Part shown: piece by piece, positions 4,493 to 49,512 of the stretch | Layout: the number at the start of each line of letters is the position of its first letter | Numbering within the stretch: the stretch's first letter is position 1 | DNA from: Candidatus Woesearchaeota archaeon | Lineage (GTDB): Archaea > Nanobdellota > Nanobdellia > Woesearchaeales > UBA10216 | Direction: 5' to 3' | Length of the DNA: 57,206 bases | Assembly (NCBI GenBank): GCA_016180105.1 | Contig: JACPBZ010000026.1 | Location: 1 to 57,206 of the forward strand | Translations under genes and position numbers: made by a program | Notes under the pieces: model-generated | Seen by the model: only the letters and a program-made list of their open reading frames with translations | Databases searched by the model: none | Told to the model about the DNA's origin: nothing

Positions 4493-6796
4493 ATGCTAAT
4501 AAAGAGTGTGAAGCTTCATAACATTCGCAGTTACTTGAGCCAGGATGTGGCTATTCCTGAGGGCACTGTTCTTCTCTCAGGCGATATAGGCTCTGGAAAG
4601 TCCACTATTCTTCTTGCGATTGAGTTTGCGCTTTTCGGCATTAATAAGGGACTCCTTTCGGGTGAGGCGTTGCTTCGGAATGGCAAGCAGTCGGGCTTTG
4701 TTGAGCTTGCTTTCTCCTTTGATGGCCGTGATGTTGTGATACGGCGCAGCTTAAAGCGCGTGAAGGATTCCGTGCGGCAGGATGAGGGATTCATTTCTGT
4801 TAACGGCTTGAAGCAGTTCTGCACTGCTGATGAAATCAAGGCGCGCGTTCTGGAAATGCTTGGCTATCCTAAGGAGCTGCTGAGGAAGTCAAAAGGCCTG
4901 ATTTACCGCTTTACTGTTTACACTCCCCAGGAGGATATGAAGCGCATCCTGTTTGAGGACCCTCAGGCAAGGCTTGACACCTTGCGGAGGGTTTTTCAGA
5001 TTGAGAAGTACAAGCTTGTTCGTGAAGGCACTGCGATAGTCCTTCAGGCCCTCCGTGAAAGGCGCCGCGAGCTTGCAGCGAGAATTGAGGACCTTCCCCA
5101 GAAGCAGGAGCAGCTTTCAAAAATTTCGGGTGACTTGGCTGCAATTGATGCCCGGGCGAAAGTGTTGTTGCCTCTGATTGAGAGTTCTGAAACTTCTGTC
5201 AGCGAAAAGAAGGCGCAATTGAGGGCGCTTGAGGAAAAGTCCAGGGAGATCTCTCTGTTGAAAAGCAGGTTTGCGGCATTAATTGCTATTTTTGAGGAAA
5301 AAAGGAGCTTGATGGCGCTGCGGGAAAAGGAAGTCAGCTCTCTGAAAAGTGAAATAGCATTGCTCCAAGAAGGGTTATCTGATAATTCCTCTGCCTTGTC
5401 ACAGCTTTCATTCTCGCTCTCAAGGCTCAAGTCTTTTTCGGATTATCTCCTGGGTGACATTGGTGCTAAAAAGCAGCTTGAGGGGGAATTAGCTTCTGCT
5501 GAGCAGCTTAAGTCCGAGGCGGAATCTGAGCTGGGCAGGAATGAGGCGCTTAAGGCGTCTGCGCAGCAGCTTTTGGAAAAAATATCTGCCCTGTCAAGCT
5601 GCCCTACCTGCCTTCAGCCTGTTGAATCCGGCCACAAGCATAGTGTTTCAGCCGAGCAGGAGAGCAGGATTGCTGGTTTTGCAGTGAACATCGCGTCGGC
5701 TTCTGGAAGAAAGTCATCATCGCTCCAGAGGATAATCTCTCTTAGGACAAGGCTTGTTGATATTCAGTCGAAGGAGAAGATTGTTGCAGTGCTTTCTTCC
5801 GAGCTTAAGCCTTACTTTGAGTTGGCGTCTGTTTTCAATGTCAGCCTGCATTCGCAGCAGGTTCAGCAGTTTGGGAACCAGTCTCAGGTCTTGCAGCAGG
5901 CGATGAGGCCTGTTCTCTCCGTGGCCGAAATGCAGGCGGAGCTTTCCATTCTTTCCTCTGCAAGGAAAGCTTTGGACGCCTCAAGGGAGCGCACGCTGCT
6001 TGCTTCAGAGAAGGAGAAGGTTATTTCGCTCGCGGAGCGTCAGGTGAGCTCGTGGAAGTCAGAGCTTCAGGCTCTTGATTCTGAGAAGGGAATTCTTTTA
6101 GCGTCGATTGAGCGTTTTGGGGATGTTCAGGCAGAGTCAGCGGCTCTTCACTCTGAATTGGACAGGCTTGTTAATGACCATACGGCCTTGATGATGCAAA
6201 AAGCCGCCCTTGAACGGGAAATCGAGAGCCTTTCAGCGGCGGCAAAATCCCTTGCTGGGGAAATCGCGCGAAAGGAGTCTGCAAGGAAGGAGCTTGAAAG
6301 CTCATCCAACCTGGCTTTTTGGCTTGATGAGATGTTTACGGGCCTTGTTTCCGTTATTGAACGGCACGTCATGATGAAAGTTCATCAGGAATTTAATGTC
6401 CTTTTCAGGGATTGGTTCACGATGCTGATGGGCACGGATTCGCTCTCGGCGAGGATTGATGAGGAGTTTACTCCTGTTGTGGAGCAGGATGGCTTTGACA
6501 CCCCGATTGAAAATCTTTCAGGGGGAGAGAAGACGAGTTGCGCGCTCGCATACAGGCTTGCTCTCAATGTGGTCATAAACAATCTCGTTTCCACAATCCG
6601 CACAAAGGATTTGCTCATTCTCGATGAGCCCACTGATGGTTTCAGCTCAGAGCAGCTTGACAAGCTTCGCGATGTGCTGATGCAGATGCAGCTGCCGCAG
6701 GTCATAATCGTGAGCCACGAGGACAAGATTGAGAGTTTTGTCCAGCACGTCATACGCGTCCAGAAGGAGCAGCACGTCAGCAGGGTTGTGGCATAA
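4493..6796 (+). CDS. rad50: Rad50 / SMC-like DNA double-strand break repair ATPase
   Basis: 767 aa. It has Walker A GDIGSGKST, long coiled-coil regions, a central CPTC zinc hook (SSCPTCLQP), the signature LSGGEKT, Walker B LLILDEPT and an IIVSHE H-loop. Confidence 0.9.
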   Translation: MLIKSVKLHNIRSYLSQDVAIPEGTVLLSGDIGSGKSTILLAIEFALFGINKGLLSGEALLRNGKQSGFVELAFSFDGRDVVIRRSLKRVKDSVRQDEGFISVNGLKQFCTADEIKARVLEMLGYPKELLRKSKGLIYRFTVYTPQEDMKRILFEDPQARLDTLRRVFQIEKYKLVREGTAIVLQALRERRRELAARIEDLPQKQEQLSKISGDLAAIDARAKVLLPLIESSETSVSEKKAQLRALEEKSREISLLKSRFAALIAIFEEKRSLMALREKEVSSLKSEIALLQEGLSDNSSALSQLSFSLSRLKSFSDYLLGDIGAKKQLEGELASAEQLKSEAESELGRNEALKASAQQLLEKISALSSCPTCLQPVESGHKHSVSAEQESRIAGFAVNIASASGRKSSSLQRIISLRTRLVDIQSKEKIVAVLSSELKPYFELASVFNVSLHSQQVQQFGNQSQVLQQAMRPVLSVAEMQAELSILSSARKALDASRERTLLASEKEKVISLAERQVSSWKSELQALDSEKGILLASIERFGDVQAESAALHSELDRLVNDHTALMMQKAALEREIESLSAAAKSLAGEIARKESARKELESSSNLAFWLDEMFTGLVSVIERHVMMKVHQEFNVLFRDWFTMLMGTDSLSARIDEEFTPVVEQDGFDTPIENLSGGEKTSCALAYRLALNVVINNLVSTIRTKDLLILDEPTDGFSSEQLDKLRDVLMQMQLPQVIIVSHEDKIESFVQHVIRVQKEQHVSRVVA

Positions 6797-14271: not shown

Positions 14272-16741
14272 ATGCAAGACGATGCCGAGCCGTATGTGTA
14301 CAAGAAAGTGAGCGCAGTTACTTTTGGCGTTCTCAGCCCGAAGATGATTAAGAAGATGGCTGCTGCCAAGATTGTCACGCCTGAGCTTTATGACAAGGAG
14401 GGCTACCCTGTTGATGGCGGCCTTATGGATGTGAGGCTTGGCGTGATTGATCCGGGCTTGAGGTGCAAGACTTGCGGCTCAAAGCTTAAGGAGTGCACTG
14501 GGCACTTTGGCTACATCTCGCTTGCGAGGCCGGTAATTCATATCAGCTTTATCTCGGTCATTCTTACATTGCTGAGGTACACGTGCAGGGAGTGTTCCCG
14601 CGTGCTTTTGCCCACCGCAAGGATTGACCAGTATGGCGAGAGGCTTAAGCGCCTTGGCAAGGACAAGGGGCCTGAGGTAATGAGGAAGAAGCTCAAGGAC
14701 CTTATCAGCGCATCAAAGTCTGTTAGCAAGTGCCCGCATTGCAAGGCTAAGCAGAAGAAGATTCTGCTTGAGAAGCCCAGCACTTTCTTTGAGGATGACA
14801 AGCGCATTTCCCCGATTGAGATAAGGAGCAGGCTTGAGAAGCTTCAGGATGCTGATATTGAGCTTTTTGGCCTTAATCCTGGCGCAGTGAGGCCTGAATG
14901 GATGATTCTCACTGTTTTGCCAATTCCTCCTGTCACGATGAGGCCTTCCATTACCCTGGAGACTGGCGAGCGCTCTGAGGATGACCTTACTCACAAGCTT
15001 GGCGATATTGTGAGGATTAACCAGAGGCTATTTGAGAACATCAACGCAGGCGCTCCTGAAATCATAGTTGAGGACCTTTGGGACCTTTTGCAGTATCACG
15101 TTACGACCTTCTTCGATAATGAGGTTGCGCAGCTGCCTCCCGCAAGGCACAGGTCAGGCCAGCCACTCAAGACATTAACTGAGAGGATTAAGAGCAAGGA
15201 GGGCCGCATCAGGCACAACTTGACTGGCAAGAGGACTAACTTTTCCGCAAGGACGGTCATCAGCCCCGACCCAATGCTGGAGCTTAATGAAGTGGGCGTT
15301 CCGGACATAATGGCGATGAAGCTTACTGTTCCTGAGAGGGTTACTGAGTGGAATATGGCTTACCTTAAGGAGTTTGTGAGGAAGGGCCCGAAGAGTTATC
15401 CTGGCGCGAATTATGTCATCCGGCCTGATGGCCGCAAGAAGAGGCTGACTGAGGAAACTATCGAGGCTTCGGTTGAGGAGCTTCAGCCTGGTTACATTGT
15501 TGAGAGGCACTTGATGGATGGTGACATTGCCATCTTCAACAGGCAGCCATCGCTTCACAGGATGAGCATGATGTGCCATCGCGTGAGGGTTTTGCCCTGC
15601 AAGACTTTGCGCCTTAATCCTGCCGTGTGCTTCCCTTACAATGCGGATTTTGATGGCGACGAGATGAACCTTCACATTCCGCAGACTGAGGAGGCCCGCT
15701 CGGAGGCAGAGCTTTTGATGCTGGTTGATACCCAGATGATTTCCCCAAGGTATGGCCTTTCGGTCATAGGCTGCATCCAGGATGCGATATCTGGCAATTA
15801 CCCTTCTTCCCGAGAATTTTAACTTTTCCGGAAGGTCGAAGTCGCGGGAGGAGCCTGAGGTTGTTATCAAGGGCGGCAAGCTCGTGAGCGGCGTTATGGA
15901 CAAGAATAACCTTGGTGAGGGCTCTGGCTTGCTTCTTAGGAACCTGCACAAGAAGTATGGCAGGCAATTCGCCCTGGACACGCTTGGCAAGATGTTCAAG
16001 CTTGGCATTGCCCTCTTAATGAAGCGGGGCTTTACCACTGCGCTTTCCGATACTGACTTGCCTGGTGAGGCAAAGGCTGCAATCAAGGCTGTCTTTGAGA
16101 AAGCCGAGCAGGATGTTGCTGAGCTGATCTCGCAGTATAATTCGGGCCAGCTTGACATATTGCCTGGCCGTACCTTGAAGGAAACTTTGGAGCTGAAGAT
16201 TCTTGAGGTCCTTAATAAGGCTCGTGACGAGACTGGCAAGATTGTCGCAATGAATGTTGAAAGCTACTCGCACACTATTGTTATGGCAATTTCAGGTGCT
16301 CGCGGAACGCCTCTTAACCTTGCACAGATGGCAGGCTGCGTTGGCCAGCAGGCCCTTCGTGGCAAGAGGATTGAAAACGGCTATTACCAGAGGACGCTGT
16401 CCTGCTTCAAGCGTGATGACCTTTCGCCTGAGGCTCGCGGCTTCATCAAGAGCAGCTTCAAGGCTGGCCTGAAGCCCGCGGAATTCTTTTTCCAGTCGAT
16501 AGTTGGCCGTGACGCGCTTATGGACACTGCATTGAGGACTCCAAAGTCGGGATACCTCTATAGGAGGCTTGCTAACGCGCTTCAGGACCTTAAGGTTGAG
16601 TATGACGGCACTGTCCGCGATTCTGGAAAGAGGATTGTGCAGTTTAGTTACGGCGAGGATGGCATTGATGTTTCGAAGTCTGAAGGCGGCGTGCTGAACA
16701 TCAAGAGGGTGGCTTCAGAGGCGCTGGAGAGGGGTGAGTAA
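14272..16741 (+). CDS. rpoA1: DNA-directed RNA polymerase subunit A' (Rpo1N). The reading frame is interrupted near 15802.
   Basis: The two track ORFs (14272-15822 and 15782-16741) carry contiguous Rpo1 homology: the Zn motifs, the [12 protein letters not shown] active site, then GRTLKETLE and GARG. Homology switches frame exactly at aat tac c|ctt ctt (CCC at 15801-15803). Confidence 0.85.
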
Positions 16742-25278: not shown

Positions 25279-27920
25279 ATGGCGGCTGTTAGCGATTCTG
25301 GAATAATGAGGAAGGAAGTTCCAAACGACTCCAGTGAGATACTTGGCGTTCTTAATCCCACTGTGAAGCAGTGGTTTTTTTCCCGTTTCAAGGAGTTCAG
25401 CCTGCCTCAGCTTTTTGGAGTGATGGAAATCCACGGCAGGAGTAACATCCTCGTTTCAGCGCCAACTGGCGCGACTAAGACATTGACAGCTTTTCTTAGT
25501 ATCCTGAACGAGCTTGTTGACAGCAGCGAGAAGGGCATTCTTGAGGACAGGATTTACTGCGTTTATGTTTCGCCCTTGAAGGCCCTTAACAATGACATTG
25601 GCAAGAATTTGAGGGAGCCTCTTGAGGAGATGGAGAAGATTGCGGGAAGGAAGCTGGGCATTCGCATAGGCGTGCGCACTGGTGACACGACAGCTTCCGA
25701 GAAGTCCAGGATGCTTGCAAAGCCGCCGCATATCCTGATTACCACGCCTGAGTCGCTGGCCATTGTGCTTTCCGCCTCTAAATTTGTTGCTCACTTGGGA
25801 AATGTTGAGTGGTGCATTATTGATGAGGTTCACGCCCTGGCTGAGAACAAGCGCGGTGTTCACCTTTCGCTGAGCCTTGAGCGCCTTCAGAGGCTGTCTC
25901 CCGGGATGGCCCGCATTGGCTTGTCAGCGACAATTGCGCCCTTGGAGGAGATTGCCAAGTTCCTTGTGGGCTTGGAAGATTTTTCTTCCGGCAGGTATCG
26001 CAGCTGCAGGATTTGTGATGTTCAGTTTGTCAAGAAAATGGACTTGAAGGTCATCAGCCCGGTGCCTGACCTGATTGATGCTAGCCGGGCTCAGATGCAG
26101 GATTCGATGTATGTTTTGATTGACGGCCTTATCCAGAGCCACAGGACAACTCTTATCTTCACTAATACGAGGTCGGCGACAGAGCGTGTCATTAATCATC
26201 TCAAGGAGAGGTTCCCGAAAAATTATGCGGCAGCCGAGCCCTCCATTGGCGCGCACCACGGCTCTCTCAGCAAGGAGCACCGTTATGGTATTGAGTCGGC
26301 CTTGCGGTCTGGGAAGCTGAAGTGCGTTGTCAGCAGCACGAGCCTGGAGTTGGGTATTGATATTGGCTACATTGACCTTGTGATTTTGCTTGGGAGCCCG
26401 AAGTCGGTCGCAAGGGCCATTCAGAGGATTGGCCGCTCTGGTCACAAGCTTCACGAAGTTTCAATGGGCAGGATAATTGTCCTGGATAGGGATGACCTGA
26501 TTGAGTGCGCTGTCCTCCTGAAGTCAGCCATCGAGAAGGACATTGACAGGATTCACATTCCCTCTAACTGCCTTGATGTTCTTGCCCAGCAGGTTTTTGG
26601 GATTGCCATCGCTGACACTATGAGCGTCAATGACCTTTATGGTCTTGTGCGCGGTAGCTATTGCTATAGGGATTTGTCATTCAAGGATTTGAAGGAAGTC
26701 CTGGATTATCTTAGTGGAAAGTTTATCTCCCTTGAGGACCGCCACATTTACGCCAAGATATGGCACGATGAGTTGACTGGAATGATTGGCCGCCGGGGAA
26801 GGCTTAGCCGCGTTATCTACATGACGAACATCGGCACCATTTGACAGTGAAAATTGCCGGCACTGAGGAGGTTGTTGGGAAGGTTGACGAGTCTTTCCTT
26901 GAGAGGCTTAAGAAAAGCGATGTTTTTGTGCTGGGCGGGGATAAGTACCAGTTCGGCCACGCCAAGGGAATGGTTGCTTATGTGCACAGCTCGGTTGACA
27001 GGCAGCCTACCATTCCTTCCTGGTTTTCCGAGATGCTGCCGTTGAGCTTTGACCTTGCGATGAGCATCGGCAAGTTCAGGAGGCTGATGGAGGAAAAGTT
27101 CAATCACAATCGCAGCAAGGCGGAAATTCTTGAATTCATAAACGGCTACCTCTATGTTGACAGCAACGCCGCTGAGTCGATTTACGACTATTTCAGGGAG
27201 CAGTTTCTCTTCCTGGAGATTCCTCACGACAAGAAGATATTGGTTGAGTCGTATTCTGAGCAAGGGCGCCATTATGCTGTTTTTCATACTCTTTTCGGGA
27301 GGAGGGTGAATGATTGCCTTTCTCGCGCCGTGGCTTTCGCGATTTCCCGGACGCAGCATCACGATGTTGAGGTTGGCATTACTGACAACGGTTTTTTCGT
27401 TGGCTGCCCAAGGGCTTTTAATGCAATGGCGGCATTCAAGCTTCTTAATTCGGAAAAGCTTTCCCAGGTGCTTTCAGCCGCCATTGAGCAGTCAGAAATC
27501 CTTCGGAGGCGCTTCAGGCACTGCGCTGCGCGCTCGTTGATGATCCTGCGCGAATATCTTGGTCACAGGAAAAGGGTTGGCAGGCAGCAGGTGTCTTCCC
27601 AGATACTGATTAATGCCGTGCGCCGGATTAGTCCTGATTTTTGCATCCTTAAGGAAGCCAGGAGGGAAGTTCTCGAGGACCTGATGGACCTGCCTTCCAC
27701 GTCGTTGGTTATTAAGCTCATTGAGGATGGAAAGATAAAGCTTAAGCAGGTTAATGGCTCAATGCCTTCGCCTTTCGCATTCAACATTGTCCTTGAGTCC
27801 CACACTGACATGATGCGTATGGAAGACAAGGTTGAGTTCCTCAAGAGGATGCATCAGAAAATTCTTGATCGGATTGGTGTTCGAAGCCGGAAGGAGGCTG
27901 CGGAAGCCTCGGCAGCCTAA
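25279..27920 (+). CDS. lhr: Lhr-family DEAD/DEAH-box helicase. It is either split or frameshifted at 26839-26844.
   Basis: ORF1 has the helicase motifs APTGATKT, DEVH, SAT and QRIGRSGH. ORF2 has the Lhr C-terminal (DEAD_assoc-like) region. Homology continues from NIGTI directly into (L)TVKIAGTEEVVGKVDESF with a 1-nt frame change at aTTTga. Confidence 0.8.
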
Positions 27921-29387: not shown

Positions 29388-29660
29388 CTACTTGTCTAAG
29401 ATTATGCTTTGAGGTTGCCATCCTCTGGGAATTTTGTATCTGGTCTTTAGAAGAGTTACTGAGCTTATTCTCGCAATTACGAACGTTCTTTCTTCATTTC
29501 TCAAATGACAAAACGCAGTGATTGCGCTTTTCCAGATTTTATAGACGTCGATTACCCTTGTTGTGTGTTCATTGTTATGAGGACTGTAGTATGTTATCTT
29601 CAAACTCTTTTTATGTTCGAACGCTTTCTTCAGCAGGTTCACAATTTCGGATTTTTTCAT
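29388..29660 (-). CDS. Short stand-alone WYL-domain-like protein
   Basis: 90 aa. KSLKITYYSPHNNEHTTRVIDVYKIWKSAITAFCHLRNEERTFVIARISSV follows the WYL-domain core pattern (x-I-x-Y ... R-x-I-x-P/V ... C ... R-x-F-x-x-x-R-I). Confidence 0.55.
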   Translation of the reverse strand: MKKSEIVNLLKKAFEHKKSLKITYYSPHNNEHTTRVIDVYKIWKSAITAFCHLRNEERTFVIARISSVTLLKTRYKIPRGWQPQSIILDK

Positions 29661-29672
29661 CTGAAAAACCAG

Positions 29673-29801
29673 TTAATGCGGCCCCAGGCATCGGCATTCC
29701 TTTATGTGTGTCCAAAACTTCTTCTCGTCAGGCTTCATTTTGCAGCCGCAGCACGGGCATCTGTCTGACATTTCGAGTTCCTCTTTGTTTAGTTTACCCA
29801 T
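29673..29801 (-). CDS. 42-aa Cys-rich (putative metal-binding) micro-protein, unannotated
   Basis: Own translation: MGKLNKEELEMSDRCPCCGCKMKPDEKKFWTHIKECRCLGPH. An AGGAGG motif overlaps the HEPN stop, 4-5 nt before the ATG. The ORF is sandwiched 8 nt and 12 nt from its neighbours. Confidence 0.5.
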   Translation of the reverse strand: MGKLNKEELEMSDRCPCCGCKMKPDEKKFWTHIKECRCLGPH

Positions 29802-29809
29802 AGCTCCTC

Positions 29810-30370
29810 CTACTCAAATACTTCTCCAAGCCTTTTGACAAACTGCTTTGCGCTGCTTAACAAATCTTCAGCCAAATCTCTAGATATTTCTCCTACTTCG
29901 TAAGCTGCTGTTCTTCTTGTTTGTCTTCCTTTCGCAAGCATATCCACATATTCCTCTTTCAGCGACCTGGCTTTGTCAAGCATGTCCACAAGGCGCTCTT
30001 CCAGAATGCCCTCATGCACATAGTAGTAATACAAAGCCCAAACTGCCGCTTCATGCGGCCTTACCTTGTAGCCAATCCTGGCCAAGGCGGCCATAGCCGC
30101 ATGATACATCGCATAATATGCCGCTTCAATAACTGACTCGTAGCACCTGAACTTAGGGTTCAGACTGTGAACCTTCTTTAGCTTTTCATCTTCCGAAATG
30201 TTCCATAGCAGGTTGGCTACTACGAGGTTGAAGCCTGCCTTCTCCATGTGTTTTCCCGCAAGATGCTTGATTGTGATGTCTTTCTCGAGTGCTGGTTGCT
30301 CTCCACGCTGCGTCCTCTTGTAGTATTCTATTTTTCCTTTCAGTACTGCAAGGCTATATTTTAAGGTCAT
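29810..30370 (-). CDS. HEPN domain protein (putative toxin of the MNT-HEPN module)
   Basis: 186 aa, helical. AAYYAMYHAAMAALARIGYKVRPHEA and a C-terminal RQTRRTAAYE fit the PF05168-type HEPN pattern. It overlaps the upstream nucleotidyltransferase gene by 17 nt. Confidence 0.65.
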   Translation of the reverse strand: MTLKYSLAVLKGKIEYYKRTQRGEQPALEKDITIKHLAGKHMEKAGFNLVVANLLWNISEDEKLKKVHSLNPKFRCYESVIEAAYYAMYHAAMAALARIGYKVRPHEAAVWALYYYYVHEGILEERLVDMLDKARSLKEEYVDMLAKGRQTRRTAAYEVGEISRDLAEDLLSSAKQFVKRLGEVFE

Positions 30371-30986
30371 TTTCCACTTCCCTCACGTATTCAAAGAACT
30401 TTTCGCACCCGTAAATGACAACGTGATACCTTAAAGCTTCCTTCCCAACGTTGACGTCCTTGGAAGTGAGCATGCTTTGGAAAAGCTTCTTATCCATAAC
30501 GACGGCATTCAGCTCCACAGCATGTGCCATAGACAATGTGTTAGCTACTCTGGAAACTGTTTCCCTTTTCCTATCTTCAACAACAACCAGCAGGTCAACA
30601 TCGCTCTTTTCCCTCGCTGTGCCTTTTGCGTAGCTGCCAAAAACAGCCACAAAATGAAGGGTATTTGATTGTTTAGACTCATCAAGAAGCTTATCCAGAA
30701 TTCCCTTCAAAGTTTTATTATGTGAAAACAACTCTTTAGCCTTTGCAGCCTCACGCTGGCAAAGCAAAAGAATGGTGTTATACTCAGAAAGGTTAAGGGA
30801 GCATAAAGAAGAAGTGCCAACAACCCTCTTATTTAGGACACCATCTGCAACCATTGACATGACTTTATTGTAGATGAAGCTGTAACCTTTCCGGCCCAGT
30901 CTCCGGGCTATCTCATTGATGCTGTACTCAGCCAAAATGTTCTCATCATACAGCCCCACTATCTGCCGCTCAAGTTCGCCCGCCAT
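30354..30986 (-). CDS. wHTH-fused minimal nucleotidyltransferase (MNT, putative antitoxin)
   Basis: 210 aa with an N-terminal winged-helix-like region and the NTase motif VAVFGSYAKGTAREKSDVDLLVVV. Confidence 0.7.
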   Translation of the reverse strand: MAGELERQIVGLYDENILAEYSINEIARRLGRKGYSFIYNKVMSMVADGVLNKRVVGTSSLCSLNLSEYNTILLLCQREAAKAKELFSHNKTLKGILDKLLDESKQSNTLHFVAVFGSYAKGTAREKSDVDLLVVVEDRKRETVSRVANTLSMAHAVELNAVVMDKKLFQSMLTSKDVNVGKEALRYHVVIYGCEKFFEYVREVENDLKI

Positions 30987-31163
30987 AATTATTCCTCTTT
31001 TAAGATAACATTATCCCAAAAATAGGGTAACTGCTATATAAACTTTTTGGTGCCACAAAATGCATCAGCAGTCAGACTTCGGACAAGCTTTTTATATCCT
31101 TTCTCCGAGAGTGTGTGTAAAAGAAGCAGGACATTAGTCTTTTTATGGCTGTCAAGTTTGGTC

Positions 31164-31201
31164 GCGACGTCGCACTACTATACGCCGTCCTGTCCCGGCG
31201 T
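31164..31201. repeat. Island repeat A (38 bp, identical to repeat C)
   Basis: gcgacgtcgcactactatacgccgtcctgtcccggcgt. It contains a GCGAC|GTCGC palindrome and an ACGCCG-n8-CGGCGT hairpin. Confidence 0.9.
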
Positions 31202-31240
31202 CCTTCTCAAAACCAGAAACTTTATATAGTTGTAACATCA

Positions 31241-31261
31241 ATTAGTAGAAATATTACTAAT
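31241..31261. promoter_or_regulatory. Inverted repeat (attagta-n7-tactaat) upstream of abiEi, a candidate operator
   Basis: A perfect 7-bp inverted repeat lies 12 nt upstream of the ATG and downstream of a TTTATATA box (31221-31228). Confidence 0.35.
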
Positions 31262-31272
31262 TGGTGTTAATT

Positions 31273-31773
31273 ATGGAAGGGCTTTCAAGGAAGGAAATGG
31301 AAATTGTGTCATGGCTTGAATTTTACAACAAGTATTTCTTTTCTTCATCAGAAATAGACAGATTTGCAAAAAGCAGAACTCAGCGTTACAATTTTATCAA
31401 AAATTTGTTGAAAAAGAAACGAATTGTCAAGCTAAGCCGGGGCAGGTACTACCTGATAACTACAAAAGCCAAATCTGGAAGCTGGGCGGAACATTCCTTC
31501 ATTTTGGCAGATGAAACGTGCAGTGGTAAGGATTACGTCATCGGTGGGTGGGCAGCAGCCAACTACTGGCATCTTACTGATCAAATCCCCATGCAAATTG
31601 ATGTTTATACTACAAAACGGCAGGGTGTATTAAGAGTGCTCAATACACGCATTGTCTTTCATAGGACAACTGAACGAAGGGTGAATAGCGTTGTTGTAGG
31701 ACGCATCAGCAATCATCCCTTTAGGATTGAAAAAAAAGAGGATGCTAAAAAATGGCTGAAATCAACAAGATAA
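31273..31773 (+). CDS. AbiEi-family type IV antitoxin (transcriptional regulator)
   Basis: 166 aa from the ATG at 31273. The N-terminal wHTH with KRIVKLSRGRYYLI matches the AbiEi_4 signature. It overlaps the next gene by 22 nt. Confidence 0.65.
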   Translation: MEGLSRKEMEIVSWLEFYNKYFFSSSEIDRFAKSRTQRYNFIKNLLKKKRIVKLSRGRYYLITTKAKSGSWAEHSFILADETCSGKDYVIGGWAAANYWHLTDQIPMQIDVYTTKRQGVLRVLNTRIVFHRTTERRVNSVVVGRISNHPFRIEKKEDAKKWLKSTR

Positions 31774-32534
31774 GCCCCAGAGAATTTGCAGATATTGCTT
31801 CACGGCATCCATTTAACAATATCCTGCTCACTAAAGACTATTATGTCACCGTGTTTCTCTACTTATGCAAAGAGATTGATGGCTTGTATTTCAAAGGAGG
31901 GACCGCTCTGCAAAAAATATTTCTTAATCACAGTCGGCTAAGCGAGGATATCGATTATACTGTCACCATAGATGTGGAAGAGGCAAAAAGAGAAATAACC
32001 GAAGCGATAAAAGCGAGTCAATTTGCAACCAGCATAACCAAGGATAAGGATGTTGAAGGATTTACTCGTCTAGTTATTCACTACAAGGGTTTTGGTGATG
32101 AGGATGGAACAGTGTTTATTGACCTGAATAAGCGAGCCAGGCTCCTCCTTAAGCCTGAACGACACGAGATTAAACATTTTTATCCTGACAATATCCCAGC
32201 GTTTTCTGTCAATACTCTCGCACGAGACGAAATGTTTGCAGAAAAAGTTGCTGCCGCGGTTGGCAGGAACCGCCCAAGGGACTACTACGATGTTTACACG
32301 ATGATTAAAGCCAACCTGCCTATCAATCTTGACATAGTCAAACAGAAATGCAGGCAATCGGGCACTGAATTCAATGTTCCAAGAATGTTCAGCAAAGCCG
32401 ATAAGCTCAAAGTGAGATGGGACAGGGATATGATCCCCCTTCTGGCTGAAGAAGTTCCGTTCGTGGAAGTGATGAGAACACTGGCCAGGCACTTCAAGCT
32501 CAAGGAAGTAAAAGATACTAAAAGGGAAAGGTAG
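31752..32534 (+). CDS. AbiEii/AbiGii-family nucleotidyltransferase toxin (DUF1814)
   Basis: 260 aa with FKGGTALQKIFLNHSRLSEDIDYT, the hallmark motif of this family. Confidence 0.75.
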   Translation: MAEINKISPREFADIASRHPFNNILLTKDYYVTVFLYLCKEIDGLYFKGGTALQKIFLNHSRLSEDIDYTVTIDVEEAKREITEAIKASQFATSITKDKDVEGFTRLVIHYKGFGDEDGTVFIDLNKRARLLLKPERHEIKHFYPDNIPAFSVNTLARDEMFAEKVAAAVGRNRPRDYYDVYTMIKANLPINLDIVKQKCRQSGTEFNVPRMFSKADKLKVRWDRDMIPLLAEEVPFVEVMRTLARHFKLKEVKDTKRER

Positions 32535-32536
32535 TT

Positions 32537-32584
32537 GTCGAACCTCCTGTCCCGGCGTTATACTTGCAGTTCAGCGCCGTCACA
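32537..32584. repeat. Island repeat B, a hybrid of the A/C core and D-type flanks
   Basis: gtcgaacct + cctgtcccggcgttat + acttgcagttcagcgccgtcaca. It can fold as an imperfect long hairpin (cctgt..ccggcg / gcgccg..acagg). Confidence 0.8.
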
Positions 32585-33260: not shown

Positions 33261-33298
33261 GCGACGTCGCACTACTATACGCCGTCCTGTCCCGGCGT
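33261..33298. repeat. Island repeat C (38 bp, identical to repeat A)
   Basis: It has the same 38-mer as 31164-31201 and lies 12 nt from the stop of the flanking core gene. Confidence 0.9.
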
Positions 33299-43362: not shown

Positions 43363-43477
43363 AGCCCTGTAGTGTAGCGGTCAAGCACGGCAGGCTCTGG
43401 CCCTGCAAACCCTGGTTCGAATGTTGGCGCATGGCGGCAACACGCCAAGCGTTAGCGCGGATGTCCGGGCGGGGCTA
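43363..43477 (+). tRNA. tRNA-Gln (anticodon CTG) with a T-loop intron
   Basis: Acceptor agccctg/cggggct gives the archaeal A1:U72. Anticodon stem gcagg/cctgc with loop ctCTGgc. The T stem cctgg + ttcgaa(t) is interrupted by a 42-nt insert at about 43422/3-43463/4, before ccggg. The mature length is 73 nt. A T6 run follows. Confidence 0.8.
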
Positions 43478-43903
43478 TTTTTTCTTCAGCCAATCAATTA
43501 ACTCTTTTGAAACCTTATCCCAGAATTCTGCTATTTCTTGCGCTTGGTCGGGGCGCACAATTCCTCCTCTATACTCCTCATCATGTCTTATCCTTCTAAA
43601 CATGTCAATTTTTCGAAGTTCAAAATTTAGCTTTACATTAGCACCTTCTAGTATGCGTATGCTTGCCTCATGTGAGCGGGGTTCATAGCCACTCTTCCAC
43701 CATGCAGCATCTCCCAGTTGTCTGAATGCGTCATAAAATGACTTGAAAATGTTTGCCGCGGTTTCTTCTTTGATTGGTATACTTTTTCCAAAATTGGCGT
43801 TACGAACTGCAGCACCTATTAATGATTCTGCCCTAAGTAGATCAGGTGTTCGTTTCCATAATTCCTTTCTTTCAAGGTAGGATTTTATTTCTTCCTCGTT
43901 CAT
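43475..43903 (-). CDS. HEPN domain protein (second MNT-HEPN module)
   Basis: 142 aa with FRRIRHDEEY (an R-x-x-x-H...Y HEPN-type motif). Its stop codon overlaps the last 3 nt of tRNA-Gln. Confidence 0.65.
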   Translation of the reverse strand: MNEEEIKSYLERKELWKRTPDLLRAESLIGAAVRNANFGKSIPIKEETAANIFKSFYDAFRQLGDAAWWKSGYEPRSHEASIRILEGANVKLNFELRKIDMFRRIRHDEEYRGGIVRPDQAQEIAEFWDKVSKELIDWLKKK

Positions 43904-44481
43904 AATCTCACCTCCAAGACTCCAGAAAGAACTATGCCGTTTGCTAGGTTTGTGAACAGATTTAAGTCAATACTCTTTCTATTAAAAGTTAGAATATGGA
44001 TTTTTCGGTCGATGGCTTTTTCATAAGCGTCAATTCCATCTGGCCTCACAGATGTTACACTCACATCTTCGGTTGTTTCAATAGCTATATCTATGTCTGA
44101 ATCAGACCTGTCCTGTCCCCATCTGTAACTTCCGAAAAGGATAATGGTTTTGGGATGGTTGAGTGATTCATCTAGGAATTCAACTAGTCCGCTTTCATAA
44201 ACTACGTTGAGGTTGTGAACTATTTTTCTTTTAATAAATTGATAGCTTTCAGTTTTAGCCTTTATCCTGAAAACTACGCCCTGATTTACGGTTACAATTT
44301 CGTTCTCTTCAAGAACCCCTAAAAATCGGTTCATAGTACTCTTCGATATGCCTGCCGCTGAGGCAAGTTCAGTAAGACTGAACTCGGTTTCAGGAAAGTT
44401 ATATAGAACTGAAAGTACATCTCGGAGTTTGTTTCTTTCCAGCCATAAGAGTTCTTTTTTTGAAACGCTTGTTCTTTTCAT
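43900..44481 (-). CDS. wHTH-fused minimal nucleotidyltransferase (second MNT)
   Basis: 193 aa with an N-terminal wHTH (LTELASAAGISKSTMNRFLGVLEE) and the NTase motif ILFGSYRWGQDRSDSDIDIAI. It overlaps the HEPN gene by 4 nt. Confidence 0.7.
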   Translation of the reverse strand: MKRTSVSKKELLWLERNKLRDVLSVLYNFPETEFSLTELASAAGISKSTMNRFLGVLEENEIVTVNQGVVFRIKAKTESYQFIKRKIVHNLNVVYESGLVEFLDESLNHPKTIILFGSYRWGQDRSDSDIDIAIETTEDVSVTSVRPDGIDAYEKAIDRKIHILTFNRKSIDLNLFTNLANGIVLSGVLEVRL

Positions 44482-47417: not shown

Positions 47418-49512
47418 ATGGCAAAAAAAGCTGAGCTGGCTTCAGGGGAGAAAATCCTTGTGACGGCGGCATTGCCGTATGCCAACGGCCCCATTCATCT
47501 TGGGCATCTGGTTGAGTACGTCCAGGCAGATGTGTTCGTGAGGTTCCTTAGGCTTTCAGGAAAGGATGTGGTTTTTCTCTGCGCTGATGACACCCACGGG
47601 ACTCCCATTGAGATTGCGGCCTCGAAGCAGAACATTACTCCTGAGCAGCTCATTGCGAAGTATTATGAGGAGCATCAGGCTGATTTTGCGGCGTTTGGCA
47701 TCAGGTTTGACGTTTACCATTCAACAAACAGCCCTGAGAACAAGCATTACAGCGACCTTTTCTTTAGGAAGCTGACTGATAAGCGCCTGATTTACGAGAG
47801 GCTGATTAAGCTGACATACTGCGATAGTTGCAAGCGCTTCCTTCCTGACCGGTATGTCAGGGGCAAATGCCCGAAGTGTGGTGCTGATGACCAGTATGGC
47901 GACCAGTGCGAGAAGTGCAATGCGACTTACCAGCCTGTTGACCTTGTTGAGCCGAAGTGCGCGATTTGCGGCTCTCTTCCGGTCAGGAAGCAGTCTGTGC
48001 ATTACTTCTTCAAGCTAAGCGATTTCTCGGCCAAGTTGACGGAGTGGCTTGACGCGAATCATATCCAGGATGATGTCCGGCATTTTGTCGAGGGCTGGAT
48101 AAGGTCAGGCCTTCAGGATTGGGATATTTCCCGCGATGGCCCATACTTCGGCTTCAGGATTCCGGGTGAGACGAACAAGTACTATTATGTTTGGCTTGAC
48201 GCTCCCATTGGCTATATCGCCGCGACTGAGAAGTACGTGAAGGATGCTGGCGGAAGCAATGCCGTTGACGCTTACTGGCAGAATCCCAACGCGAGAATTA
48301 TCCACTTTATCGGCAAGGACATTACGCAGTTCCACTTGCTTTTCTGGCCTGCAATCCTTATGGGAGCCGGCTTCAGGCTGCCGTCGGACATCATTGTCCA
48401 CGGTCACCTTACTATCAATGGCGAGAAGATGTCAAAGTCCCGTGGCAATTTTCTTGTGGCTCGCGATTACCTTGCTGCGCCAGCGCACGATCCTGAATTC
48501 CTCAGGTTTTATTACGCTTCCCATCTCGTGAAACAGCGACCTTGTTGGGAACTTGGCAAATTTTGTGCACCGCACCTTGGTGTTCATCAATAACAACTTT
48601 GATTCCAGGCTTGGCAGCCTGGGCAGTGATGAGAAGTTCTTTTTGCAGCAGCTGCAGCCAAAATACGATTCTATTGTCCGGCATTACTCCGAGTACGATT
48701 TCAAGGATGCCGTGAAGGAGCTTCTTGAGCTTAGCAGTACGGGAAACAGGTATTTTCAGGAAAACCAGCCCTGGCAGCTAGTGAAGGCTGACAGGAAAAA
48801 ATGCCATAAAATCGTGACTGTTGCAGCGAACATAGTTAAGGACCTTATGCTGCTTTGCTATCCGATTTTGCCCGGTTATTCGGAGAAGGTTTTGAGGCTT
48901 TTTGGCTTTAGCGATTTTGCAAGGCTTGGCCTTGGCGAGCTTGGCAAGGCTGTTTCGGTGGAACGGATTGGCCAGTCAAGGATTATCTTCGCGCCCATTG
49001 AGGAAACAATTTCGATTGCGGAAATTTTTCCGGCCGTTCTTAGGGTGGGCCGGGTTGAAAGTGTTGAGGACCATCCGAATGCGGACAAGCTTTACGTCCT
49101 GAAGGTCAATCTCGGCGGCAGCGGTGGTAAGCCTAAGATAATCCAGCTGGTTGCTGGTTTGCGGCAGCATTACGGGAGAGATGAGCTTCTTGGAAGGAAA
49201 ATAGTTGTTGTCTCGAACCTGAAGCACGCGAAGCTTCGCGGCTATGAGAGCGAAGGGATGCTTCTCGCGGCAGATGATGGGAAGAAAGTTGTTCTTGTTT
49301 CGCCTGTGGATTCCCAGCCTGGAGACTTGGTGTTTCCAGAGGGCTCTGATGCTGATAAGATTGCATCATCCAGGAAGCAGCTGGCCATTGACGGGTTTTA
49401 CAGGCTTGGCTTGAAAGTGAGGGATGAGAGGGTGATGTTCGGGCTTAAGTCTTTGAGGACTGCAAGGGAAGTCATCCCTGTTGATGCTGCCGATGATGCC
49501 GTGGTTAGGTAA
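47418..49512 (+). CDS. metG: Methionine--tRNA ligase with a C-terminal tRNA-binding (Trbp111/EMAPII-like) domain. The reading frame is interrupted near 48531.
   Basis: ORF1 has PYANGPIHLGH, the Zn knuckles CPKCG...CEKC...CAIC and KMSKSRGN. ORF2 starts within the conserved LVGNLANFVHR helix and ends with the VEDHPNADKLYVLKV OB-fold. The frame switch is at the AAA run 48531-48533. Confidence 0.85.

Follow-up and report, generated by a model that had tools for sequence, protein, structure and literature searches.

Modules that pair a minimal nucleotidyltransferase (MNT) with a HEPN protein are thought to rank with the commonest toxin-antitoxin (TA) modules, and they are strongly enriched in archaea. 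In the type VII system HepT/MntA, MntA polyadenylylates HepT (PMC7641770), and the PADLOC candidate system PDC-M05 is enriched in archaea (PMC12988326). WYL domains have been described in other settings: WYL1 of type VI-D CRISPR binds single-stranded RNA (ssRNA) and stimulates the HEPN RNase Cas13d (PMC5935466, PMC6547453), the WYL factors DriD, CapW and PafBC were solved bound to, or are triggered by, single-stranded DNA (ssDNA; PMC11804915), and Makarova et al. (2014; PMC4012209) reported WYL fusions to AbiGII/AbiEii-like (DUF1814) nucleotidyltransferases (NTases). Here we analyse a 57,206-nt stretch of a Candidatus Woesearchaeota genome (assembly GCA_016180105.1, contig JACPBZ010000026.1, positions 1 to 57,206; hereafter the window), in which an MNT-HEPN pair is followed on the minus strand by a 42-codon open reading frame (ORF) and by a gene for a solitary WYL domain (29388-30986). 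The first-pass annotation, made from the sequence letters, knew of no MNT-HEPN module with both a WYL protein of its own and a metal-binding micro-protein. Within the literature searched, no paper links WYL to HepT/MntA or reports a TA system in which WYL is one of three parts, and neither the linkage to MNT-HEPN nor a HEPN-WYL fusion is found in Makarova et al. (PMC4012209) or in the 2013 HEPN survey, where the term ‘WYL’ does not occur. Conserved MNT-HEPN (and AbiE) modules that have WYL as a third component seem not to have been described before, yet they are made of known parts. With modest confidence, we favour the view that the locus is a mosaic, probably co-transcribed archaeal TA/defence cassette with three functional layers, namely MNT-HEPN, a solo WYL protein that would tune the toxin and a lineage-specific zinc-finger micro-protein, and that it probably represents a tripartite TA/defence module.

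The window is part of an archaeal chromosome and encodes RNA polymerase in split subunits (B', A' and A''), together with Rad50 and an Lhr helicase. Four minus-strand ORFs are arranged head to tail: a 210-aa MNT with a predicted winged helix-turn-helix (wHTH) (30354-30986), a 186-aa HEPN protein of the AF0298/UPF0332 (HEPN-T) type (29810-30370), the 42-codon ORF (29673-29801) and the 90-aa WYL protein (29388-29660). The MNT and HEPN genes overlap by 17 nt, and the same overlap is present in L001, one of the 120 loci fetched for comparison (given here as L numbers). An AGGAGG motif overlaps the HEPN stop codon TAG, the ATG of the 42-codon ORF lies 8 nt past that stop and 4 nt past AGGAGG, and the WYL ORF starts 12 nt after the TAA of the 42-codon ORF. 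These last two ORFs share one reading frame, with 141 nt from start to start and a spacer consisting of TAA and four codons (LVFQ). All coordinates, overlaps and spacings agree with the packed four-gene arrangement claimed at first pass, and so does the operon-like organization, as no promoter-like box is present between the four genes and the sole BRE/TATA element (BRE, B recognition element), together with a conserved operator, is located upstream of MNT. The packing is beyond chance, given that the order MNT-HEPN-WYL is found again in unrelated assemblies, and the four genes are probably co-transcribed.

The nucleotidyltransferase domain of the MNT is located at residues 98-154 (Pfam NTP_transf_2, 7.3e-11; Polbeta, 1.1e-10) and carries the G[SG]-x9-13-D-x-D motif of minimal Pol-beta-fold nucleotidyltransferases in the form GS...DVD (FGSYAKGTAREKSDVDLLVV). 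The protein matched the PADLOC profiles PDC-M05A (6e-11) and PDC-S09 (1e-11) and, under the model cut-off, the NCBIfam family MntA_antitoxin (1.4e-9), and its NTase core aligned with Shewanella MntA (PDB 5yep, 1e-3). Measured against its 209-210-aa homologues from L013-17, L078 and L079, it is full length. The N-terminal 75 residues gave only weak HTH matches (E about 0.25), and the PDC-M05A profile spans residues 20-170; hence, in the earlier call of a wHTH-nucleotidyltransferase, the second half is firm and the wHTH is weakly seen. The HEPN assignment, in turn, was marginal with PF05168 (1.4e-4, 22.5 bits against a cut-off of 22) and was backed by the best PDB match, 2hsb (AF0298, UPF0332; 9.1e-5), and by PADLOC PDC-M05B (5.6e-4). 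Its homologues of 66-88% identity have 186-187 aa, and one homologue is named ‘UPF0332’ in JGI. The MNT gene is therefore accompanied by an adjacent HEPN-fold partner, as in an MNT-HEPN (type VII HepT/MntA-like) module.

Compared with type VII HepT/MntA and PADLOC PDC-M05, the locus shares the adjacent, overlapping genes for a minimal NTase and a HEPN protein and the PDC-M05A/B profile matches. It differs in that its HEPN protein is of the AF0298/UPF0332 type without the Rx4-6H motif, that the MNT carries an N-terminal (w)HTH, and that the pair has a WYL gene and a micro-ORF behind it; neutralisation by AMPylation may be proposed here by analogy.

The WYL protein matched PF13280 over residues 5-69 (2.7e-11, 43.8 bits, cut-off 21.8). 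An AlphaFold model built on 21 homologues (pLDDT 85.6) consists of one helix (residues 3-16) and five strands that form an Sm-like barrel, and the top PDB matches of this model in Foldseek were the WYL domains of BrxR, PafBC, CapW and DriD, with TM-scores of 0.72-0.77. Profile, model and fold matches thus agree with the earlier assignment to WYL. Neither an HTH nor a WCX domain was detected by Pfam in the 90-aa protein, whereas P0051, a typical member from the same search, is composed of HTH_11, WYL and WCX. The window protein shares with BrxR, CapW, PafBC and DriD the fold, the R-x-F-x-x-x-R-I signature and the location in defence loci, but those proteins are HTH-WYL-WCX factors, and the window WYL, having neither HTH nor WCX, is no stand-alone DNA-binding regulator. 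The suggestion that it is a ligand-sensing regulator of its locus, in the sense of BrxR or CapW, is consequently not directly applicable.

The WYL subfamily is narrow. An exhaustive phmmer search of 1.84 billion representative proteins gave eight clusters at E <=1e-10, genome matches were confined to DPANN archaea (Pace-, Woese- and Nanoarchaeota) and one Methanosarcinales metagenome-assembled genome, and close 90-aa relatives were found neither in JGI metagenomes nor in IMG/VR. An NTase- or HEPN-type TA module adjoins the WYL gene in about 15 of 22 distinct archaeal loci, mostly from DPANN, a raw count from genomes that are themselves rich in TA modules. The arrangements vary. The WYL gene follows on the same strand 6 nt behind HEPN (L001-4, L006), 15 nt behind HEPN (L081), 1-2 nt behind AbiEii (L007/8, L026) or 4 nt behind a DUF6036/NTP_transf_5-like NTase (L018); WYL, with or without a Cys-rich protein, is encoded directly upstream of MNT-HEPN (L114-117) or of AbiEi/AbiEii (L028); and in L019, L020, L024, L025 and L027 the WYL gene lies in convergent or divergent orientation beside MNT-HEPN (L020, L025, L027), AbiE or an NTase. 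The WYL association is hence broader than MNT-HEPN and extends to AbiEi/AbiEii and other NTase modules.

The strongest evidence for the WYL link is a HEPN-WYL fusion. In P0038 (287 aa), a PF05168 HEPN domain (7.5e-10) is linked with a WYL domain that is 46% identical to the window WYL (2e-26), and the fusion is present in two near-identical forms (P0038 and P0184) on 15 contigs from independent sources. In addition, L080 contains a truncated AbiEii-WYL fusion. On these gene arrangements and fusions we take WYL to be a genuine companion of MNT-HEPN. Among described systems, WYL1 of type VI-D CRISPR is the best functional analogy, as it is a small WYL protein encoded beside a HEPN RNase, and the WYL subfamily is genetically coupled to HEPN, as WYL1 is to its HEPN nuclease, by operons in the window, L001-4, L006 and L081 and by the fusion P0038. 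WYL1 differs in being composed of a ribbon-helix-helix (RHH), a WYL and a dimerisation domain and in serving an RNA-guided effector, whereas the window protein is the barrel alone beside a TA-type HEPN, and no sequence match of the window WYL to WYL1 was obtained in the PDB profile search. The fusions of Makarova et al. likewise combine WYL with a Pol-beta-fold TA NTase, as do the AbiEii-WYL operons of L007 and L026 and the L080 fusion, but the window WYL is a separate polypeptide behind HEPN. Further fusions of the subfamily involve an AAA_33/zeta-toxin-like kinase, an NYN fragment and a 3'-5' exonuclease (P0039, 650 aa; P0036, 115 aa; P0050, 275 aa).

Comparison of the window with the fetched loci at the DNA level (blastn) showed that the locus is a mosaic of two blocks. 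The first, window 31047-29823, runs from the promoter to about 10 nt short of the HEPN stop and is 70-83% identical in DNA to seven loci (L013-17, L078, L079), all of which are two-gene MNT-HEPN cassettes without a WYL gene or the peptide ORF, with HEPN proteins 66-88% identical to that of the window. The second, 29635-29389, is the WYL gene, with 72-75% DNA and 70-73% protein identity to the WYL genes of L001-L006; in L001-4 and L006 this WYL gene lies 6 nt behind a different MNT-HEPN pair, whose proteins aligned poorly with those of the window (roughly 25% identity by eye). Between the two blocks is a unique 187-nt joint (29636-29822) that takes in, besides the Shine-Dalgarno (SD) sequence and the peptide ORF, the final HEPN codons and the initial WYL codons, and matched none of the fetched loci by blastn except for nt 1-21 of L005, which lie at a contig end. 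In L005, which has the closest WYL homologue, this trace of the peptide is followed by a frame-broken 3' remnant of an L001-type HEPN gene (score 35, shuffled maximum 23), downstream of which the WYL gene lies. We read this as an ancestral MNT-HEPN-WYL operon of the L001 type, in which a segment ending in the peptide gene would have replaced the old MNT-HEPN. Since MNT-HEPN was swapped upstream of a WYL gene that was kept, WYL is the resident and not an add-on; the earlier view of the extra genes as additions to a basic module therefore has the history reversed, with the conserved WYL retained and the MNT-HEPN pair exchanged.

The cassette promoter (31004-31048, minus strand) comprises the BRE/TATA box AAAAAGTTTATATA at 31035-31048 and, at 31004-31031, a candidate wHTH-MNT operator with the inverted half-sites GTTACC...GGATAATGTTATC. 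Across six homologous cassettes, the box and the GTTATC/GATAAC half-sites are invariant or nearly so, and the flanks further upstream are unrelated. The MNT-HEPN module thus comes with a promoter of its own and probably also with an operator that the wHTH of MNT would bind. At the other end, a different 169-aa gene without Pfam match starts 6 nt past the HEPN stop in L079 (1424-1933), and the 3' end of the MNT-HEPN cassette seems to be a hotspot for gaining third genes.

Such a history raises the question of whether the adjacency has any functional meaning, as MNT-HEPN, WYL, AbiE and a 164-aa gene might simply have been stacked by site-specific recombination in a variable islet. The block boundaries at 29823 and 29635, the low GC content of the islet, the repeated core motifs at cassette borders, the ability of MNT-HEPN to stand alone elsewhere with a promoter of its own, and the richness of DPANN and euryarchaeal genomes in such TA modules (PMC12988326) are all compatible with stacking. 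We nevertheless consider it very unlikely, because several unrelated types of module show WYL on the same strand 1-6 nt after a toxin gene, because WYL is fused to HEPN on 15 contigs and to AbiEii in L080, and because no separate promoter box precedes the WYL gene in the window.

A second alternative concerns the side on which WYL would act. It may belong to the antitoxin or transcription side, as a ligand-binding co-repressor or anti-repressor working with the wHTH-MNT (in DPANN via a Lys-rich extension), comparable with BrxR for BREX and CapW for CBASS. The closest structural relatives of WYL are all transcription factors, many defence systems have WYL regulators encoded alongside them (PMC9122601), the DPANN homologues have a 40-aa helical N-terminal extension that could bind DNA, and the cassette does have a conserved operator. 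On the other hand, the window protein is a WYL barrel alone without HTH or WCX, no RHH or HTH was detected by Pfam in the DPANN extension, the partner of WYL in P0038 is a HEPN toxin rather than a DNA-binding domain, and cassettes that lack a WYL gene keep the operator as well. We therefore regard a role on the antitoxin or transcription side as improbable.

In the model that we favour, the wHTH-MNT would be the antitoxin and would repress its own BRE/TATA promoter through the GTTATC/GATAAC operator, and, by analogy with MntA/HepT, it would probably neutralise HEPN by nucleotidylylation. The AF0298-type HEPN would be the toxin and presumably acts on RNA, although an alternative active site or non-catalytic action is conceivable (PMC3710099). 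The solo WYL is expected to act at the protein and RNA level, because it has no DNA-binding domain; its Sm-like barrel would bind single-stranded nucleic acid, most likely ssRNA and possibly ssDNA, and, as WYL1 does with the HEPN RNase Cas13d, may tune the toxin by substrate presentation, potentiation or gated release. The WYL subfamily would then serve archaea, and DPANN in the main, as a portable third component to be coupled with several toxins (HEPN, AbiEii, other NTases), and the 42-aa zinc-finger micro-protein from the recombination joint may be an optional, lineage-specific extra. If this model is true, the principle of a WYL protein tuning a HEPN RNase extends from CRISPR (WYL1-Cas13d) to simple TA modules, and a WYL domain can function without any DNA-binding domain. 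The recurrent and sometimes fused third gene, encoding the WYL barrel only, is a testable handle on the trigger of MNT-HEPN modules, including the ligand and the gating of HEPN.

Several observations weigh against this model. The closest relatives of the window MNT-HEPN proteins (66-88%) apparently work without WYL or the peptide, which suggests that WYL is dispensable for the module, and the WYL gene has no adjacent TA module in L009, L021 and L022. The canonical Rx4-6H RNase motif is not present in the HEPN protein, which reads ...GRQTRRTAAYEV..., that is R-x4-Y, with its His residues within AMYHAA and RPHEAA, so RNase activity, judged from the sequence, is not assured. In the AF0298-type HEPN-T family, the motif His is typically missing and an alternative conserved His has been proposed (Anantharaman et al. 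2013; PMC3710099), and R-x4-Y in the window protein fits this family for that reason. A TTTTT run (about 29665) in the spacer between peptide and WYL could serve as a partial archaeal terminator. Finally, rpoA' (14272-15822 / 15782-16741), Lhr (25279-26844 / 26841-27920) and MetRS (47418-48593 / 48553-49512) each consist of two overlapping or abutting ORFs, which suggests frameshift errors in the assembly, or pseudogenes; with essential genes split in this way, single-base or indel assembly errors are possible in the window, but all four ORFs of the operon have the full length expected from their homologues.

Of what the first-pass annotation had claimed, the metal-binding micro-protein is the weakest point. 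The 42-codon ORF encodes 6 Cys and 2 His, has an exact CPCCG at residues 15-19 and a second Cys pair, CRCLG, at residues 36-40 that lies outside the C(P)XCG motif, and cannot be extended upstream, as an in-frame TGA occurs five codons before its ATG. In its size, its knuckle and its further Cys pair it resembles the archaeal one-domain C(P)XCG micro-proteins (Haloferax volcanii; Halobacterium Brz), which have <70 aa, a CPXCG knuckle and a further Cys pair (PMC11241148, PMC6562870, PMC2253796), but it differs in its second motif CRCLG, in having no sequence homologue and in its location inside a TA operon. A single-sequence AF2 model (pLDDT 71) formed a knuckle over residues 14-21, with a helix spanning 26-36, and 12 of 12 Foldseek matches were beta-beta-alpha zinc fingers (GAGA, NEMO, UBZ, C2H2), all non-significant (E >=2). 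The peptide is a candidate for the C(P)XCG zinc-finger class, it may bind zinc, and it is not callable as a conserved component.

Conservation of the peptide ORF, which the first-pass annotation had made a condition of its reading, was not borne out. No homologue was found in a word-index search of 5.8 billion protein sequences or in degenerate-pattern scans of GTDB genomes and JGI metagenomes, and tblastn and a Cys-pattern regular expression detected none in the 120 fetched loci except for the 21-nt trace in L005; neither the MNT-HEPN nor the MNT-HEPN-WYL loci closest to the window contain the ORF. It might accordingly not be a gene at all, but a chance ORF or the degraded remnant of a zinc ribbon in the joint left by block replacement. 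Beyond this lack of homologues, the ORF sits exactly within the unique junction, Cys and His densities like its own occur in 42-aa stretches of 14 of the 981 six-frame ORFs of the window, so that its composition alone is modest evidence, and it has no detectable similarity to the Cys-rich protein of DPANN loci described below. Against this, the ORF is preceded by the best SD sequence of the operon (AGGAGG), and the CP.CG motif occurs in only four of the 981 ORFs, the other three being real genes. Moreover, nt 1-21 of L005 encode RCLGPH*, and all three nucleotide differences from the window are synonymous, so that the last six codons and the stop were kept despite decay of the following sequence, as would be expected of a C-terminus under purifying selection. 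The model is zinc-finger-like, and gene callers commonly overlook short ORFs, this one included. We therefore think a non-coding origin unlikely, though not negligible, and regard the peptide as probably translated, lineage-restricted and not a defining part of the system. Read-through from the peptide into WYL, or a fusion of the two, is unlikely, as the TAA is conserved in L005 with decayed sequence beyond. The 130-aa WYL homologues that had prompted the idea of a fusion owe their extra 40 residues to a Lys-rich helix without Cys.

A different small Cys-rich protein accompanies WYL in DPANN archaea. In 12 DPANN loci, a protein of ~92-100 aa (ERPKWPLQRLKGMYFAMHCWKCKKFELP...NNCPICKKLG; HCWKCKK...CPICKKLG) is encoded 0-18 nt after the WYL gene; the loci that carry it are L007, L011, L018, L019, L021, L022, L024, L028, L080, L081, L082 and L114-117. 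It has no Pfam family and appears to be an uncharacterised obligate partner of the DPANN WYL. The WYL genes of these loci encode 130 aa, with the 40-aa Lys-rich helical extension at the N-terminus, for which an RHH reading was unsupported by Pfam (no RHH or HTH). A quartet of MNT, HEPN, WYL and small Cys protein recurs in L081 and L114-117. The window peptide was considered as a reduced copy of this partner and rejected, as the family HMM did not rank it among the listed ORFs of the window and Smith-Waterman comparison against shuffled sequences gave no signal (P 0.04-0.8); at most, the two are functional analogues. One could go further and propose that a solo WYL and a small zinc-binding protein form a portable two-part sensor cassette for AF0298-type HEPN, AbiEii and other NTases, zeta-like kinases and NYN RNases, which would define an unrecognised tri- or quadripartite TA/defence class with the 42-aa zinc finger as a non-homologous replacement of the ~95-aa Cys protein; we hold this to be speculative and rather improbable. 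Both uncharacterised Cys-rich proteins are small enough to be easily missed by gene callers, and they are candidate components of archaeal/DPANN conflict systems.

The divergent neighbour of the cassette is an AbiEi/AbiEii type IV TA pair on the plus strand (31261-32534; AbiEii PF08843, 7.6e-30; AbiEi_4, 7.7e-4). It shows 50% identity to the AbiEi/AbiEii pairs found in L028 and L080, which are themselves directly linked to the same WYL subfamily. The MNT and AbiEi promoters, which face away from each other, have a near-identical 25-nt BRE/TATA box (AAACTTTATATAG...GTTAC; 31027-31051 and 31212-31236). A 15-nt perfect-like palindrome overlaps the AbiEi start (31233-31269) and is likely to be the AbiEi operator.

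A 38-nt repeat marks the upstream border of the cassette (31164-31201, about 180 nt upstream of MNT), with its core ACGCCGGGACAGGA on the minus strand. It recurs as a perfect direct repeat at 33261-33298 and, over 20 nt, as a partial third copy at 32545-32564, and the repeats bracket the AbiE pair and the 164-aa ORF. The core occurs three times exactly in the window, against 0.25 expected, and it also occurs 50-70 nt past the WYL stop in L001-L005; positions in these loci include L001 6337-6350 and 6487-6500 and L005 442-453. In L001 the core is identical with the 3' end of a tRNA that contains an intron (Rfam, 43 bits; missed by ARAGORN). Between a partial and a full copy of this tRNA 3' end, L001 has tandem repeats of ~46 nt (6350-6487; CTCACTCTGTTCGGGAGTTGCCTTCGCTATGCTCGGCAACTGTC...). 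The repeats look like tRNA-derived att or cassette-border sites, and because the core equals a tRNA 3' end in L001, att-type sites are preferred to attC. A reading as integron attC sites was rejected, as the repeats measure 20-38 nt and show weak folding (z-scores -1.5, -2.6 and +1.8). A third copy of the core upstream of the L001 operon was likewise dismissed, the sole candidate having three mismatches and being compatible with chance. No integrase was recognised among the islet ORFs scanned, and in the islet Rfam detected no RNA gene, tRNAs included, from 27 to 36 kb.

The window contains a second MNT-HEPN pair (43475-44481) that, as noted at first pass, lacks the extra genes. Its 142-aa member has no Pfam match, yet it is homologous to HEPN partners elsewhere. 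The pair abuts a tRNA-Gln gene (43364-43436), and its two proteins are 35% and 30% identical to the MNT-HEPN pair of L025, which is convergent there with a 103-aa WYL protein of the same subfamily.

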